Positions 11,770-18,223 are shown, counted from the first letter of the stretch. The stretch: 64,000 nt of DNA from an uncultured Candidatus Poseidoniales archaeon (GCA_902563095.1 CACEWA010000001.1:24540-88539), one strand, 5' to 3'. Notes: generated by a model not told the origin, from the letters alone. Made by a program: numbers and translations.

Positions 11770-12123
11770 GTGAATTCGTATTTTGCAGTGGCATTAGGAG
11801 GGGCAATAGGCGCTACACTACGTTTCGCTGTAAGTGAATGGGTTGGTAATCCGCAGGGCACATTAATTGTGAATGCAGTCGGATCTCTGCTTCTAGGGAT
11901 ATGTATGGCAGCGCTAGCCACTGAGATGATTTCCAAGGAACTAACTTTGTTCATCGGAACTGGAATATTAGGTGCATTCACTACGATGTCTACCTTTTCT
12001 GTAGAGACCATTGAAATGTGGAATGATGACTCTTCGAAAGCGATTGGTTATGTTTTGCTTACGATGATTTTATGCCCGCTATTAGCGCTTGCAGGATGGA
12101 AGGCTTTCGAGGCTACTGCTTGA
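11770..12123 (+). CDS. crcB: Fluoride channel Fluc/CrcB
   Basis: VALGGAIGATLRF, GTLIVNAVGSLLLG, GTGILGAFTTMSTF; GTG start with GAGGTG RBS at 11761. Confidence 0.93.
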   Translation: MNSYFAVALGGAIGATLRFAVSEWVGNPQGTLIVNAVGSLLLGICMAALATEMISKELTLFIGTGILGAFTTMSTFSVETIEMWNDDSSKAIGYVLLTMILCPLLALAGWKAFEATA

Positions 12124-13243
12124 TTGAAAGCATTCTTTCGAGGGCGATTTTCGCACCTTCTTGAACCTCTGGAGCGACAATAACCTGATTCGGAACTTCG
12201 CCATCTGCCAATCTTTCCAATACATCCATTAGGTAAGCTGGATGAATCATATACATTGTAGAACAGGGACATATCGTAGGTTCTAAACATTGAATGTGTA
12301 AATCTTCATGTTGTGAATCCAATCTCGCAACCATGTTGATTTCGGTACCAACCGCGATGTGAGTTCCTGGTTCTTGTTGTGCAACAAATCTTCGTATGAA
12401 CTCGGTGCTGCCATTAGCATCGGCGGCTTGAACAACTTCCATCGGACATTCAGGGTGAACGACAACTAAGCCATCTGGGTGCTCTTCTCTAAACGCTTCA
12501 ATCTGAGGAACTGTGAATCTTTTGTGGACAGAACAAAATCCATGCCACAAGACAATTTTGACATCATTAGGGATTTCATTCTCTTCTCCTGGAGTCCATA
12601 CTGACATTCTTTCAAGAGGAATTCCCATGGAAAGACCAGTATTTCGGCCGAGGTGTTGGTCGGGGAAGAAAAGAACAGCTCCATTTGGTCCAGCCCTCTC
12701 ATATGCCCATTCTAGGATACCTGCAGCGTTTGATGAAGTGCATACGATTCCTCCGTGACGGCCACAAAAGTCCTTGAGTTCCGCAGCACTATTCATGTAA
12801 GTTACAGGAATCAGACAGGATTCTCCTTCTTTTGCAGTTGCAGGGTCACTCAATCCTGATTTACTGAGAATTTCTTCCCAAGCAATTTCAACTTCATCCA
12901 GAGCAGCCATATCTGCCATTGAGCAACCAGCACGCATGTTTGGAAGAATCACTCTCTGATTGTTTGATGTAAGAATGTCCGCAGATTCAGCCATGAAGTG
13001 AACACCACAGAATACGATATTCTTTGCATCAGACTGTGCTGCTAGTTCAGAAAGTAGGAAAGAGTCTCCTAGCAAATCTGCGTGCATGACAATCTGGTCT
13101 CTTTGGTAATGATGTCCCAAAATTAGCAAATCTTCTCCCATCTGCTCCTTCAACTCGGTTATTCTGTCAGCAATTGCTGCTTCTTCAGGACCCATCGCGT
13201 CATTGGTGAAGTCAATGGCGCACATCGGCAATGACACTGTCAT
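12113..13243 (-). CDS. nadA: Quinolinate synthase
   Basis: ILGHHYQ, FCGVHFMAE, GCSMAD, YMNS, CTSSNA, HGFCSVH, HPEC, GSTEFI, CPC. Confidence 0.95.
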   Translation of the reverse strand: MTVSLPMCAIDFTNDAMGPEEAAIADRITELKEQMGEDLLILGHHYQRDQIVMHADLLGDSFLLSELAAQSDAKNIVFCGVHFMAESADILTSNNQRVILPNMRAGCSMADMAALDEVEIAWEEILSKSGLSDPATAKEGESCLIPVTYMNSAAELKDFCGRHGGIVCTSSNAAGILEWAYERAGPNGAVLFFPDQHLGRNTGLSMGIPLERMSVWTPGEENEIPNDVKIVLWHGFCSVHKRFTVPQIEAFREEHPDGLVVVHPECPMEVVQAADANGSTEFIRRFVAQQEPGTHIAVGTEINMVARLDSQHEDLHIQCLEPTICPCSTMYMIHPAYLMDVLERLADGEVPNQVIVAPEVQEGAKIALERMLSIKQ

Positions 13244-13306: not shown

Positions 13307-13984
13307 ATGCAGGCATGGACAGGCGGTGAAAGATTGCACCTCGGAGCGGAAGCAGAGGTGATTTCTGGCTCATGGCATGGAAGGTCTGCAATTCTGAAAA
13401 AGCGAAGGCCTCGAGGGTGGAGACATCCAGATCTGGATGCGAGTCTAACCAGAAAACGAATGACGAATGAAATCAAATTGACGATTTGGCTGGCCAGCCG
13501 AGGAGCTCCAGTTCCAGCAATATGGGATGTTGATATGGAGGAAGCCAGTATAATCATGGAGAGAATCGAAGGAAGGCCGCTTATCGAAGTACTCCATTCG
13601 AATGAACACGATGAAGAATTGCTTATCTCAGTAGGAAAAGCGATTCGTGAATTACATCGTAACGCAGTAAATCATGGAGATTTATCTACTAACAATATCC
13701 TAATCAACAGTAATAGAGATGCAGTTCTAATCGATTTAGGATTAGCAACTCGTGAATATGACTTGGAAGGTTTTGGAATCGACTTACATGTTCTTCATGA
13801 AATCCTGAGAGCAAGTCATCCAAGTGTCAAAGGTGCAATGGATTTGGTCCTCAAGGGATACCTCGCTTTAGATGAGGAACTTGGCAACCCTGAAGCAGCC
13901 CCTGGAGGAATGCCTCCAAAAGCGATTGAAGTAGTCAAAAGACTAGAGCAAATTATGAAACGTGTTCGATACCATGGTGGTTAG
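13307..13984 (+). CDS. bud32: KEOPS complex kinase Bud32
   Basis: GAEA, KKRRPRGWRHPDLD, HGDLSTNN, IDLGLA, IDLHVL, KRVRYH. Confidence 0.92.
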   Translation: MQAWTGGERLHLGAEAEVISGSWHGRSAILKKRRPRGWRHPDLDASLTRKRMTNEIKLTIWLASRGAPVPAIWDVDMEEASIIMERIEGRPLIEVLHSNEHDEELLISVGKAIRELHRNAVNHGDLSTNNILINSNRDAVLIDLGLATREYDLEGFGIDLHVLHEILRASHPSVKGAMDLVLKGYLALDEELGNPEAAPGGMPPKAIEVVKRLEQIMKRVRYHGG

Positions 13985-16037
13985 AAGTATTCGCTTCTCT
14001 TTGCTTTTGTACAATATAGATGAACGCTAGTGAAATAACCAGTATGACTCCGAATTTCAAAACATTCGATGAATATGGTTGTAGCGTAGGTTCTTTTGCT
14101 TGGACCTCAACACTAATGTCGCCTTCACTATTCATCTGTTGATATACATAATAATCTTGTAACACCATAGGAGCCCATTGGTCTAAGTCATCTGCAGTCA
14201 AAGGTTTTGTCAAGTTAGTTGAGAATTCATGGATGTAAATTTCTCTATCAGTATATTTGCTTGAAGCATTTGAAGGGTCGATTTCTGTGTATGCAGAAAA
14301 CATCAGAACACCATAGTCTACATGCGGGTCGTAGGCTGCAAATTTATGATCTGAAATAATCTGACTTTCGCCTGTAAGTGTATCGAGTAGAACTAATCTA
14401 GAAGTTGCATTAACATCAATCGTGGCTGCTAACTTATTTCCAGAAAAAGAGATGTCAGTAATTGTGGCATTTTCTAAATCAACATTCAAACCTTGAGCGA
14501 TTAATATGTCATCTTCTCCAGAGTCCGCAGTTGCATTCACTTCTAGTGAAATCAAACCTTCGCCATCTATGATTCCAAGATGTACTGTATCTGGGTCGCT
14601 AGCGAATACTAATGCAATCTGGCCATTTGATGATTCAAGCAAAATGATTGAATCCCCTTGACTAGAAGTTGGCCCTACATTTTCCGTACCGTCAAAGGCC
14701 CAGTAAGTCACTTGCCCATCCTGTAACAAAGCAAAACAATCATCTGAAACAATCGTCACATCACTTGGTGATTGAACATCCATGGTGTGTCTTACTTCAA
14801 GTGGATTTGTCAAATCAACAACCATCAGAACAGTTTGATTTGCCATAACTAACATGTCTCCACGTACCGTGTATGTTGAATTTTCATCCATTTCCGGCTG
14901 TAAAACTTCTATCTCGGAATTTAAGTTAGATAAATCATGAACCACCAATAAAGTCGCTTCTTCTTTCTCGTCCAGAGTGATTAGCCAACCATCGGCAGCT
15001 TCCACACCTACAGGTGCATCAACTCCTCCGGCCGGTATTGATTGGTGAGTCAAATCCCAAGTAATCACGCCAGCGACTACAATCATAACTACGGTCAACA
15101 TGATTCCTGTTTCCCTACTGGTTGGCTTCGTGAATCTTGAAAGTTGTTTGCCGAAATGTGATTTAACCACATCAAATGCCCTTTTCGGATTTGTCAGCAA
15201 TGTTACAAGCCGAGCGTTAATTGTTCTTTCATCAAAGATTCTCCAAAATGGATCTGCCAACTTATTGGCAATATTTACTGCTATTGTTGCGACAACCATT
15301 CCTCCGATGATATCCACGAACCAGTGTATACCAAGATATAGGATACAAAATGCAGTCATCAATACAAACACCAATAGTATCCTGCGATAATTAGTCCAGC
15401 GTCCATCTGTATCAAATCTCAATAAACAGAGCCAAACAGCAAATGGGAATGCAATATGTAAACTTGGCATTCCATTGGTCAAAGGGTCTATTCGATGAAA
15501 CCAGTCATTGATTTCTGGAGTGTGATTGTAAGCCAGTGTTTCCATTCCGGGAATATAATTTCCAGTTACATGTACATTGAAAAACAGATAAAATGGAATT
15601 GCTATTACATACACCCAAAATATCGCTAAACTAATTCTATCAGCCATATACCTGTCATCGAAATATGCGAAATAGAATATCGAAACATAGCATATTACCA
15701 TGAATCCGACAACATAGAAATGTGTCATGAAAGCAGTTAGCCAATCCGCTCTAAATGTCTCTTGAACCCACAAAACCATATCTGCTTCAATAGCATAAAT
15801 CCATGGAGTCATGTTGAGCATGCCATCGGTATTGGCCATCAAAATTCTATCTACTTCGTCCAAGAAATCTTTGGCGTTGTAAATGACTAAGACTATAGCG
15901 ATATGCAACCAATATCTGCGAATGAAATCAATGAAACCTTCCGATGTCACTTTAGCCCAAGGCGGTTTAATCATTGGCATCAACAGTACACCAATTGCCA
16001 ATGCGGAAATCAACCAAGTAAGATAAACACCATCCAT
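13953..16037 (-). CDS. PAP2/AUR1-like (IPC-synthase-like) membrane phosphotransferase fused to a beta-propeller-like domain
   Basis: NGMPSLH and LYLGIHWFVDIIGG PAP2 motifs; C-terminal half has TolB-like repeats and a final TM helix. Confidence 0.8.
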   Translation of the reverse strand: MDGVYLTWLISALAIGVLLMPMIKPPWAKVTSEGFIDFIRRYWLHIAIVLVIYNAKDFLDEVDRILMANTDGMLNMTPWIYAIEADMVLWVQETFRADWLTAFMTHFYVVGFMVICYVSIFYFAYFDDRYMADRISLAIFWVYVIAIPFYLFFNVHVTGNYIPGMETLAYNHTPEINDWFHRIDPLTNGMPSLHIAFPFAVWLCLLRFDTDGRWTNYRRILLVFVLMTAFCILYLGIHWFVDIIGGMVVATIAVNIANKLADPFWRIFDERTINARLVTLLTNPKRAFDVVKSHFGKQLSRFTKPTSRETGIMLTVVMIVVAGVITWDLTHQSIPAGGVDAPVGVEAADGWLITLDEKEEATLLVVHDLSNLNSEIEVLQPEMDENSTYTVRGDMLVMANQTVLMVVDLTNPLEVRHTMDVQSPSDVTIVSDDCFALLQDGQVTYWAFDGTENVGPTSSQGDSIILLESSNGQIALVFASDPDTVHLGIIDGEGLISLEVNATADSGEDDILIAQGLNVDLENATITDISFSGNKLAATIDVNATSRLVLLDTLTGESQIISDHKFAAYDPHVDYGVLMFSAYTEIDPSNASSKYTDREIYIHEFSTNLTKPLTADDLDQWAPMVLQDYYVYQQMNSEGDISVEVQAKEPTLQPYSSNVLKFGVILVISLAFIYIVQKQREANTSNHHGIEHVS

Positions 16038-16116: not shown

Positions 16117-16464
16117 TCACCATACTCCGTGGACATACGCTTTGCCATTATCTGGATCTTGTTTTTCTCCCAATCTCCAGATTCTCTCAAATCTATAAAT
16201 TCCTGATGAGCAACCACTTGTCCACTCAAATGCTAGGGCATAATTCCCGACTGGTCTAACAGTTGGCTTTTCTTTAGGGAGTGCTTCTACGGTTCTTCTC
16301 AATATTTTTGATGAATCATCGTTGTTCCTTTGGGGAGAGCAGTTCGCACAAGGACATGCGTGTCTCAAATCATCATAGGTAATTACATGCTCTGTACCAT
16401 CTGACCAAATAAGATGCATGTCGACATCTCTACGCTCTAAACGCTTCAATTCAGGAATATCCAT
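16117..16464 (-). CDS. DUF971 / GBBH-N-like small protein
   Basis: LIWSDG.EH...Y..LRHACPCANC...PVGNYAL...SGIY; GAGGTG RBS before the ATG at 16464. Confidence 0.88.
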   Translation of the reverse strand: MDIPELKRLERRDVDMHLIWSDGTEHVITYDDLRHACPCANCSPQRNNDDSSKILRRTVEALPKEKPTVRPVGNYALAFEWTSGCSSGIYRFERIWRLGEKQDPDNGKAYVHGVW

Positions 16465-16474
16465 GAAGATCACC

Positions 16475-17482
16475 TCAAATGATTTCTAATCCACTACCGG
16501 TTGAACCGGATTCGACCTTGGATTGGATTTGAGCTACTACCTCTGCGAATGCTTGAGATGCAGGACCATCGGGTTCAGACACGATTCTGTGAACTCCGTC
16601 ATCTCCACCTCTTACGAAGCCTGGGTCGAATGGAAGTTTACCGAGGAATGGTACACCGAATTCTTCAGCAGTTTTCTCACCGCCTCCCGATTTGAATATA
16701 TCCAAAGTTCCGGACCAGTGGCCTTCTTCATCCGCAGTAACTTGAACTGTCTTTCCACCAGGTGCAGCTAATTCTATTTCAGTTCCAGAAGGAGCCTTTC
16801 CTCGAATCGTGTAACCACTCATATTTTCGATTACTCCGATTACATCAACCTTCAGTGAATTTGCAAAGGTAATAGATTTACGAGAATCAAGAAGTGCAAC
16901 ATCTTGCGGAGTTGTGACGATAACCATCCCGTCAATATCTGGGAGGTTTTGTGCCACAGTCAGCGGTTCGTCAGATGTGCCGGGAGGGAAGTCGATAATC
17001 AGATAATCCAATTCTCCCCAATCGACATCGCCAATAAATTGCTGGATTGCTCCAAGTTTGATTGGTCCGCGCCACACGACTGGAGTATCCTCGTCTTCCA
17101 AGAGAAATGCCATCGATATGACCTTGACACCCAAATGGCCCTGTGCAGGATGAATTCTTCCGCTTTCTACATTCAAGCGTCTACCGCTTAGACCCATCAT
17201 CTTCGGAACGTTTGGACCAGTGATGTCAATGTCTAGCAAACCTACTTTCAAGCCTTGTTGCGCTAGCGATAGTGCCAATCCTGTAGCGACAGTAGATTTG
17301 CCTACTCCACCTTTACCAGAAAGGACCATTATTTTGTGTTTAATCGCCTTACCCATCTCTGAAATCGCCATCTTGCGCTTCATCTGATTGTAAGCAGCCT
17401 CCATTTTCTTCTGCTCTTCAGGAGAAGGTCCAGCAGGTGCGTCTCCGGGTTGGTTTACCTTGACAGGGGAATCAGCCATCAT
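16475..17482 (-). CDS. mrp: Mrp/ApbC/NBP35 family P-loop ATPase, atypical (no cysteine)
   Basis: SGKGGVGKS, DIDITGPN, VVWRGP, DWGELDYLIIDFPPGTSD, VTTPQ, GVIENMS. Confidence 0.92.
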   Translation of the reverse strand: MMADSPVKVNQPGDAPAGPSPEEQKKMEAAYNQMKRKMAISEMGKAIKHKIMVLSGKGGVGKSTVATGLALSLAQQGLKVGLLDIDITGPNVPKMMGLSGRRLNVESGRIHPAQGHLGVKVISMAFLLEDEDTPVVWRGPIKLGAIQQFIGDVDWGELDYLIIDFPPGTSDEPLTVAQNLPDIDGMVIVTTPQDVALLDSRKSITFANSLKVDVIGVIENMSGYTIRGKAPSGTEIELAAPGGKTVQVTADEEGHWSGTLDIFKSGGGEKTAEEFGVPFLGKLPFDPGFVRGGDDGVHRIVSEPDGPASQAFAEVVAQIQSKVESGSTGSGLEII

Positions 17483-17810
17483 GTGCATGCGCGGGCCTGT
17501 TATACTTCAACCCTTTTTCAGTACCATATTGCAATAGAATTGCTCCAAAAACCCATAACAAAATGTTCCATTCCATCTGCATACCGGCATATGCCCATCC
17601 TAAACCAACACTCAATGCTATCACTGGAAGCCTAGCATGGCGAACATCGCCATCGAGCAAATGTAGAACTAATCCCGCGAACATTGTTTGAATCGTGATA
17701 ATTGTTGCAATGACCCTGAAAAGCATGTCAAAATCGTTTGCTGCGGCAATGATGTGAGCGATGAACAATGTCAGAAATATGGCGGCATAAACCAAAATTG
17801 GCTTCCACAT
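17472..17810 (-). CDS. Small hypothetical membrane protein (~4 TM)
   Basis: Hydrophobic ORF whose stop overlaps the mrp start. Confidence 0.65.
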   Translation of the reverse strand: MWKPILVYAAIFLTLFIAHIIAAANDFDMLFRVIATIITIQTMFAGLVLHLLDGDVRHARLPVIALSVGLGWAYAGMQMEWNILLWVFGAILLQYGTEKGLKYNRPAHAHDG

Positions 17811-17863
17811 CTATTGAGGCTATGTGCCATTGGTTCATATGCCTCTTCTATGCAGACCTCATC

Positions 17864-18223
17864 ATGCGCCTACTATTCGTATGTGTTGGAAACTCTTGTC
17901 GCTCGCAAATGGCAGAAGGTATTGCAAGAAGCCTAGGTCATGACGCTGCGAGTGCAGGAACTCATCCAGCTTCAGCAGTCAGCCCTAATGCTCTGAAAGT
18001 ATTGGAATCAAAAGGAATCAGTACCGATGGATTACATCCTAAGTTAGTTGATGACATAGACTGGCAATCCTATGATATGGTTATCTCGATGGGCTGCGGA
18101 GTTAGTTGTCCAATGATTCGCATCGATCAGGATTGGAATCTAGAGGACCCTGTTAGTCAATCTCTCGAAGTATTCGAAACATGCGCTAGCACAATCGAAG
18201 AAAACATCAGAAATTTGGAATGA
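17864..18223 (+). CDS. arsC: Arsenate reductase / low-MW phosphotyrosine phosphatase family
   Basis: FVCVGNSCRSQMAEG P-loop, SAGT.P, SMGCGVSCP, W.LEDP; start moved to 17864. Confidence 0.85.
   Translation: MRLLFVCVGNSCRSQMAEGIARSLGHDAASAGTHPASAVSPNALKVLESKGISTDGLHPKLVDDIDWQSYDMVISMGCGVSCPMIRIDQDWNLEDPVSQSLEVFETCASTIEENIRNLE

Follow-up and report, generated by a model that had tools for sequence, protein, structure and literature searches.

Can an ATPase from a family of iron-sulfur (Fe-S) cluster carriers do without any cysteine of its own, and does the small cysteine-bearing protein encoded directly behind it make good the loss? The question is raised by a gene pair in a 64,000-nucleotide (nt) stretch of DNA from an uncultured Candidatus Poseidoniales archaeon (GCA_902563095.1, CACEWA010000001.1:24540-88539; hereafter, the window). 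The first gene, mrp, encodes a P-loop ATPase of the Mrp/NBP35/ApbC family, and the second encodes a DUF971 protein. The original prediction took the pair for a split version of HCF101, a plant protein that fuses the two domains, and proposed that DUF971 supplies in trans the cluster ligands that the ATPase has lost. We arrived at a different reading, which we hold with moderate confidence: the pair is probably a tightly coupled version, specific to its lineage, of the known partnership of Mrp and DUF971 in Fe-S protein maturation, with Mrp serving as a switch or adaptor and DUF971 as an accessory. Transfer of the ligands to DUF971 is possible but unsupported.

The window's organism belongs to the Poseidoniales (marine group II, MGII), which are among the most abundant archaea of the surface ocean; its named homologues come from Candidatus Poseidoniaceae and Poseidonia. 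DUF971 is one of the domains of HCF101, and in bacteria it has been tied to Fe-S-related phenotypes. It was annotated as an Fe-S cluster maintenance protein from the cofitness it shares with Mrp, BolA, and YggX, in work that also cited the HCF101 fusion (Price et al., bioRxiv 10.1101/072470), and the DUF971 protein PP_5002 of Pseudomonas putida has a cobalt phenotype (PMC12041740). The link between Mrp and DUF971 and the HCF101 fusion are already published, and the Rosetta-stone argument from HCF101 is a rediscovery. What is new is the cysteine-free MGII Mrp with its coupled, four-cysteine DUF971; our literature search found no paper on this Mrp or on a pairing of Mrp and DUF971 in MGII.

An Mrp ATPase without cysteine

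The pair and its parts are laid out in the window as follows.

16475-17488, minus strand: mrp, Mrp/NBP35/ApbC-family P-loop ATPase; 337 amino acids (aa) from the first ATG, 335 aa from 17482
16700-16816, minus strand: beta insert of about 36 aa in mrp, residues ~225-263, TIRGKAPSGTEIELAAPGGKTVQVTADEEGHWSGTL; from alignment with canonical Mrps
16465-16477, minus strand: mrp/DUF971 junction, stop TGA, ggtgatcttc, then ATG; from direct reading of the sequence
16117-16464, minus strand: DUF971 (GBBH-like_N) gene, 115 aa; from a PF06155 match

The start at 17482 fits mrp, since the homologues are 334 to 336 aa long and translation from this position yields 335 aa. The protein matched PF10609, the ParA family of the Mrp/NUBPL type, at 301 bits (cutoff, 27.1) in two stretches, with a break after residue 228. 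It scored 322.6 bits against NCBIfam MrpORP (cutoff, 450) and 204 bits against ApbC (cutoff, 348), both under the equivalog cutoffs. The deviant Walker A motif SGKGGVGKST, the DIDITGPN switch, and DYLIIDFPPGTSD are all kept, and in an alignment of 32 Mrp sequences K59, K64, D86, D88, D166, and P168-G170-D173 were invariant.

Canonical members of the family (Mrp, NBP35, ApbC, and Cfd1; 6G2G, 8ZKC, and 2PH1) share with the MGII protein the fold, the deviant Walker A, the Walker B, and the ENMS motif. They differ in what follows. Where canonical Mrps read ENMSGF-ICPHCG-xxx-DIFKxGGG, and where the CXXC bridges a [4Fe-4S] cluster at the dimer interface, the window's Mrp reads ENMSGY, then 36 aa, then DIFKSGGG, and it contains no cysteine at all. 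This is a property of the order: CXXC was missing in 42 of 42 translated Poseidoniales Mrps, which have 0 to 2 cysteines each at positions that are not conserved, and every one of them carries an insert, a segment of 36 to 43 aa between ENMSG[YF] and D[IL]FK. The motif was present in 30 of 30 other Thermoplasmatota Mrps and in most of the 150 nearest cluster representatives. Its loss is nevertheless not rare, as about 15% of these 150 lack it by a rough count, and several are cysteine free.

An AlphaFold2 model of Mrp built on the 32-sequence alignment had a predicted local distance difference test score (pLDDT) of 87 and a predicted template modeling score of 0.84. The insert was modeled as four beta strands (residues 226-231, 237-241, 247-251, and 257-262; pLDDT, 90 to 97), and the model outside the insert superposed on Cfd1 (6G2G), ApbC (8ZKC), AF2382 (2PH1), and a Thermococcus ATPase-type HypB. 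Judging from the loop that it replaces, the insert would lie at the dimer axis. With a beta insert in place of the CXXC loop and no conserved cysteine, MGII Mrp should be unable to bridge a cluster itself; read from its sequence, it is an intact nucleotide switch without the cluster-bridging loop. The proposal that this ATPase lost its cluster ligands was therefore right. It also follows that the label "Mrp/NBP35 family ATP-binding protein" in MGII genomes does not imply a cluster-bridging carrier.

The HypB match offers a precedent of a kind. ATPase-type HypB of Thermococcus kodakarensis (3VX3 and 5AUO) was among the top fold matches of MGII Mrp. HypB is an Mrp/MinD-family ATPase without a metal site, whose ATP-driven dimer binds the metal carrier HypA, a small Cys4-Zn protein. 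The HypB/HypA pair serves nickel insertion into hydrogenase, however, and its partner has an unrelated fold, so that the likeness to a docking of DUF971 on Mrp is an analogy only.

A DUF971 protein with four invariant cysteines

The DUF971 protein matched PF06155 with an E value of 1.8e-16 and 61 bits (cutoff, 22.8), and a word-based homologue search with it returned Poseidoniaceae-type proteins only. It carries, as had been noted, a CPCANC motif (Cys37, Cys39, and Cys42) and a further cysteine in SGCSSG (Cys85). None of the four varied among 30 Poseidoniales sequences. The solved structure closest in sequence was 3LUU (AFE_2189; E value, 2e-8), which reads CPCAEC and then SDGH. The AlphaFold2 model (pLDDT, 83) had Foldseek matches of probability 1.0 to 3LUU and to the N-terminal domain of human BBOX1. 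BBOX1 (3O2G and 3MS5) and 3LUU thus have the fold of MGII DUF971 and its CxCxxC with a distal ligand, but their distal ligand is His (DGH) and that of MGII is Cys (GCSSG). In BBOX1, the domain serves a 2-oxoglutarate oxygenase as a structural Zn module and has no Fe-S role; its site homologous to the DUF971 cysteine site binds mononuclear Zn through Cys3His.

To place these features more widely, we drew on 80 DUF971 loci from other prokaryotes, a sample found with a three-sequence alignment and therefore biased toward the CPCAxC type. Wherever the fourth ligand was readable, in 65 loci, it was His and never Cys; the other 15 were unreadable. The cysteine triad is not universal in the family. 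The two NMR structures of free DUF971 proteins that a profile search against the PDB brought up read SPSAEV instead of CPCAxC; they are 2L6N, from Shewanella loihica, and 2L6P, from a Pseudomonas ORF beside pha genes, the position of PP_5002. If orthology is assumed, the triad would not be needed for the Mrp-linked function in Shewanella and Pseudomonas, since these proteins lack it. Free DUF971 in these bacteria is, like that of MGII, a small separate protein working with an Mrp/ApbC ATPase in Fe-S maintenance. The differences are that the bacterial genes are unlinked and their DUF971 reads SPSAEV, whereas MGII has coupled genes (in the window's family), a cysteine-free Mrp, and a four-cysteine DUF971. 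We take the ApbC-type Mrps of Shewanella and Pseudomonas to carry CXXC.

In the window's family, DUF971 ends in a conserved C-terminal tail, DPDxGxPYVHGAW (DPDNGKAYVHGVW in the window; 16117-16160, minus strand). The tail is predicted to be disordered (pLDDT below 50). It is missing in a second Poseidoniales family, f3 (see below), whose DUF971 gene is not beside mrp, and it could be a docking peptide.

Separately, many bacterial DUF971 proteins (Acidobacteriota, Chloroflexota, and Planctomycetota), as well as the fusion protein of one sampled genome (G174), have a second cysteine motif, CPCxxC or CxCxxC, just past the domain. These bacterial proteins have six or seven cysteines in total, and the second motif is missing in MGII.

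Distribution and coupling of the pair in Poseidoniales

We examined 121 Poseidoniales genomes in three families: f1, which is the window's own (Poseidoniaceae), f2, and f3. The window's own genome is 63% complete. DUF971 was present as a single copy in 120 of the 121 genomes, and one strong Mrp was found in 117. No second canonical Mrp was found in the Poseidoniales genomes, and the same was true of relatives that were 90 to 97% complete, which makes the cysteine-free protein the sole Mrp of these genomes. Other PF10609 matches were considered as further Mrps and rejected, as they were weak, covered the P-loop only, and belong to other MinD/ParA-type ATPases. Across the order, the Mrp core was 57 to 96% identical.

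The two genes were adjacent on one strand, mrp first, in 58 of 59 f1 genomes, the exception being a fragmented assembly. In f2 and f3, two of the three MGII families, adjacency was found in 0 of 61 genomes, and where both genes lay on one contig they were 119 to 133 kb apart. The conserved adjacency that the original prediction called for therefore exists within the window's family and stops at its border.

Within f1 the junction is tight. In the window, the mrp stop TGA (16477-16475) is followed by 10 nt (ggtgatcttc) and by the ATG of DUF971 at 16464, so that the two are separate genes in different frames, with 10 nt between them. The junction sequence TGAGGTGATC holds a 9-nt Shine-Dalgarno-like match, GAGGTGATC, that overlaps the mrp stop; both the spacing and a ribosome-binding site belonging to DUF971 had been described correctly. 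Because of this overlap, translational coupling of mrp and DUF971 is likely in the window's family. In 19 of 22 f1 loci, from five or more genera, 8 to 10 nt separated the end of mrp from the DUF971 ATG, and the stop was nearly always TGA, then GG.

The free DUF971 gene of one f3 genome (G023:C1:525514-528771) stands between a Pus10-like gene and a divergent DnaJ-like gene with a Cys-rich zinc-finger segment. No Fe-S gene adjoins it at that locus.

Phylogeny of the ATPase and comparison with HCF101

The order Mrp and then DUF971 is that of HCF101, as originally pointed out, and it recurs in the 58 f1 genomes. Identity of domain order is one ground for supposing that an HCF101-like DUF59-Mrp-DUF971 gene split to give the pair. 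Two more are that such fusions were found in marine group III (MGIII), the sister order in the same class, and that a free DUF59 gene lies on another contig of the window's genome. The phylogeny of the ATPase opposes it. In a tree of Mrps from which the insert columns had been removed, the Mrps of MGII and of f28, a Thermoplasmatota family of another class, formed a single clade with 99/85 support inside the archaeal CXXC-type Mrps, whereas the ATPases of the DUF59-Mrp-DUF971 fusions fell in a separate, bacterial-type Mrp clade. Forcing the MGII Mrps together with the fusions cost 71 log-likelihood units and was rejected by the approximately unbiased (AU) test (p=0.0017). Fission is therefore rejected for the ATPase part. 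The DUF971 domain is too short for a tree. For the pair as a whole, we regard descent from a split HCF101 as highly improbable.

HCF101 itself, in chloroplasts and in Toxoplasma, and the prokaryotic fusions resemble the MGII pair in having an Mrp domain followed by DUF971, with CxCxxC in most lineages. They differ in being one polypeptide with an N-terminal DUF59, in the Mrp clade to which they belong, and in having His as the fourth ligand; MGII has two genes and Cys. A CxCxxC motif occurs in the DUF971 domain of most HCF101 proteins, is missing in Viridiplantae, and has been called elusive in function (PMC7980591). The cluster of Arabidopsis HCF101 needs C128, C347, and C419. As the DUF971 domain of Viridiplantae lacks the cysteine motif, the reference HCF101 does not draw its ligands from a DUF971 CxCxxC.

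Among 108 non-Poseidoniales Thermoplasmatota genomes, DUF971 was found in 2, both times as the C-terminal domain of a DUF59-Mrp-DUF971 protein. Both fusions keep CXXC (ENMAYYHCPECGH and ENMSHYVCPDCGH), and the fourth ligand of their DUF971 is His. The MGIII-type fusion genes lie in DNA of about 68% G+C (L104, L131-L133, and L148). This base composition, together with the bacterial-type grouping of the ATPases, suggests that the MGIII-type fusion was acquired laterally as a whole.

A related lineage with the same Mrp and no DUF971

The f28 family provides a built-in control, as it has the same kind of Mrp without DUF971. All 17 of its intact Mrps have a 36-aa insert, lack CXXC, and have 0 to 2 cysteines, and DUF971 was found in 0 of 18 f28 genomes. 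We considered a divergent f28 DUF971, but the sole match was weak (E value, 0.16) and lay out of frame inside a histidine ammonia-lyase-like gene, and we regard it as spurious. Because the MGII and f28 Mrps form one clade and f28 has no DUF971, the cysteine-free insert type arose once, and in one of its two branches it functions with no DUF971.

The f28 mrp gene is flanked by a ThiF/MoeB-rhodanese-like gene on one side and an ABC-F ATPase gene on the other, with a gene for an A-type Fe-S carrier 2 to 3 kb off (G159:C4:334500-339500; G231:C1). This position hints that the A-type carrier may be another, cluster-holding partner of the ATPase.

Inserts of this kind are not confined to the MGII and f28 clade. 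Two bacterial DUF59-Mrp representatives (P0167 and P0192) have a very similar beta insert in place of CXXC, with a weak CarboxypepD_reg match. Outside the insert they group apart from MGII and f28, and one common origin for all beta inserts at the CXXC site was rejected (AU p=1.7e-6). The insert was therefore either acquired on two occasions or transferred laterally.

Does DUF971 hold the cluster?

MGII offers a natural separation of functions, with an Mrp that should be unable to ligate a cluster and a free DUF971 with four cysteines. It could accordingly be held that the cluster function has moved from the ATPase to DUF971, whose Cys4 site, alone or bridged between two copies on an Mrp dimer, would bind iron or an Fe-S cluster, the two proteins together forming a two-component carrier. 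If this is true, MGII would provide the first Mrp carrier with two components, and DUF971, both as a protein of its own and as a part of HCF101, would have a biochemical role assigned to it. Much of what we found fits this idea: the Mrp is ligand free and the sole Mrp, DUF971 occurs throughout the order and keeps its four cysteines invariant, the change of the fourth ligand from His to Cys was seen only in MGII, and the genes appear translationally coupled. Ligand sets of three Cys and one His, or of four Cys, also suit labile clusters, as in NEET proteins.

The f28 family weighs heavily on the other side, as it keeps the same cysteine-poor, insert-type Mrp in the absence of DUF971. So do the MGII genomes outside the window's family, in all 61 of which the genes are unlinked. 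The DUF971 structures of the Pseudomonas/Shewanella type lack the cysteine triad, and the homologous site of BBOX1, a match by computed fold, is a mononuclear Zn knuckle.

The wider sample of 80 loci can be read both ways. In 68 of them, no Mrp lay within 4 kb of DUF971. Nine were fusions, eight of which have CXXC along with CxCxxC..H, and one of which lacks CXXC; most fusions thus keep both sites together, which goes against a transfer of ligands. The remaining three were bacterial loci in which a free DUF971 gene is directly followed by mrp, the reverse of the MGII order. CXXC is missing in three of three such adjacent Mrps and in one of nine fusions, compared with the roughly 15% (again a rough count) of the 150 nearest Mrps, which favors a transfer. 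The three adjacent Mrps form one clade, however, and count as one evolutionary event.

Taken together, we consider a cluster function moved to DUF971 unlikely. In the more specific form that this idea would take for Poseidoniales, an Fe-S or Fe site has moved to DUF971 and its Cys4 knuckle holds a labile cluster against the ATPase dimer, on the face that the beta insert forms; that version we judge to be distinctly unlikely. Since a related lineage runs its cysteine-free ATPase without DUF971, nothing shows that DUF971 took over the cluster. The supply of ligands in trans, as a reason for the pairing, was not borne out by the f28 genomes, the f2 and f3 gene orders, or the fusions. These findings, and the gammaproteobacterial DUF971 proteins that lack the triad, count against it as a general principle; for MGII itself, the change from His to Cys in this order and the bacterial pairs without CXXC leave it a small probability.

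A probable switch with an accessory subunit

We therefore return to the coupled Mrp-DUF971 partnership as the preferred reading. MGII Mrp would be an ATP-driven, dimerizing ATPase of the Mrp/NBP35 family with its nucleotide motifs intact and without cluster bridging. It may act as a nucleotide switch or adaptor, the metal or cluster sitting on a partner, for which HypB with HypA is the precedent. DUF971 would be a small Cys4 knuckle protein with the fold of the BBOX1 N-terminal domain, made in Poseidoniaceae in a fixed proportion to Mrp through translational coupling. Most likely it is an accessory or adaptor subunit that docks on the ATPase, its four cysteines holding one structural metal ion of the Zn type. 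We read it as an adaptor and not as a ligand donor because f28 has the same Mrp without it. The cluster is more likely to be carried by other carriers, as genes for an A-type carrier and for DUF59/SufT are present elsewhere in MGII genomes. We infer the physical interaction of Mrp with DUF971, the Fe-S role of the pair in MGII, and the identity of the metal from these comparisons.

Several observations sit uneasily with this reading. The two genes are apart in two of the three MGII families. The three bacterial Mrps next to DUF971 lack CXXC, have 1 to 3 cysteines, and are the only Mrp of their genomes, which fits a compensatory role for DUF971. The fourth ligand is Cys in all MGII DUF971 proteins and coincides with a cysteine-free Mrp, a change that a purely structural Zn site leaves unexplained. 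Finally, Zn in crystal structures is compatible with an Fe-S cluster in vivo.

Neighboring genes

The pair is flanked in the window by the following genes.

13953-16037, minus strand: PAP2-domain membrane protein, 694 aa, downstream of DUF971; PF14378/PF01569
17472-17810, minus strand: hydrophobic open reading frame (ORF) of 112 aa, upstream of mrp, without a Pfam match; from ORF calling and a Pfam scan
12113-13243, minus strand: quinolinate synthase NadA-like gene, encoding a [4Fe-4S] enzyme, an ordinary-looking neighbor; by reading of the translation
13307-13984, plus strand: Bud32/RIO-type kinase gene, an ordinary-looking neighbor
17768-18223, plus strand: low-molecular-weight phosphatase/ArsC-like gene, an ordinary-looking neighbor

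The gene for the PAP2 protein was found by tblastn to be the downstream neighbor of mrp across the order, directly after mrp in f3 and after DUF971 in f1. Only in f1 does DUF971 stand between the two. The linkage of mrp with the PAP2 gene is older and wider than that with DUF971, so DUF971 has moved either into or out of an mrp-PAP2 arrangement. The PAP2 protein carries a long C-terminal extracytoplasmic part.

This arrangement invites the view that the insert-type Mrp has left Fe-S delivery altogether and is a MinD/ParA-like ATPase with another task, for instance with the PAP2 protein, DUF971 having become its neighbor by operon drift. Adjacency of mrp to the PAP2 gene is kept in f1 and f3 and adjacency to DUF971 is not; in addition, the protein has no ligands, it scores under the equivalog cutoffs for MrpORP and ApbC, and the beta insert could offer a new surface for interactions. 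Yet these aerobic heterotrophs, whose genomes encode Fe-S enzymes such as the NadA-like protein of the window (12113-13243), have no other Mrp, and the core of this one is very well conserved across the order. Moreover, the f28 mrp lies close to an A-type Fe-S carrier gene, the link between DUF971 and Mrp is independently known, and the 8- to 10-nt coupling has been kept across five or more genera. We find an Mrp outside Fe-S metabolism improbable and prefer, here too, an Mrp that works with DUF971 in Fe-S protein maturation.

On the other side of mrp, the stop of the 112-aa ORF overlaps the first mrp ATG, and this ORF is kept 5' of mrp in 18 f1 loci at 31 to 66% identity. Given the overlap, the ORF may be the first gene of the mrp transcription unit.

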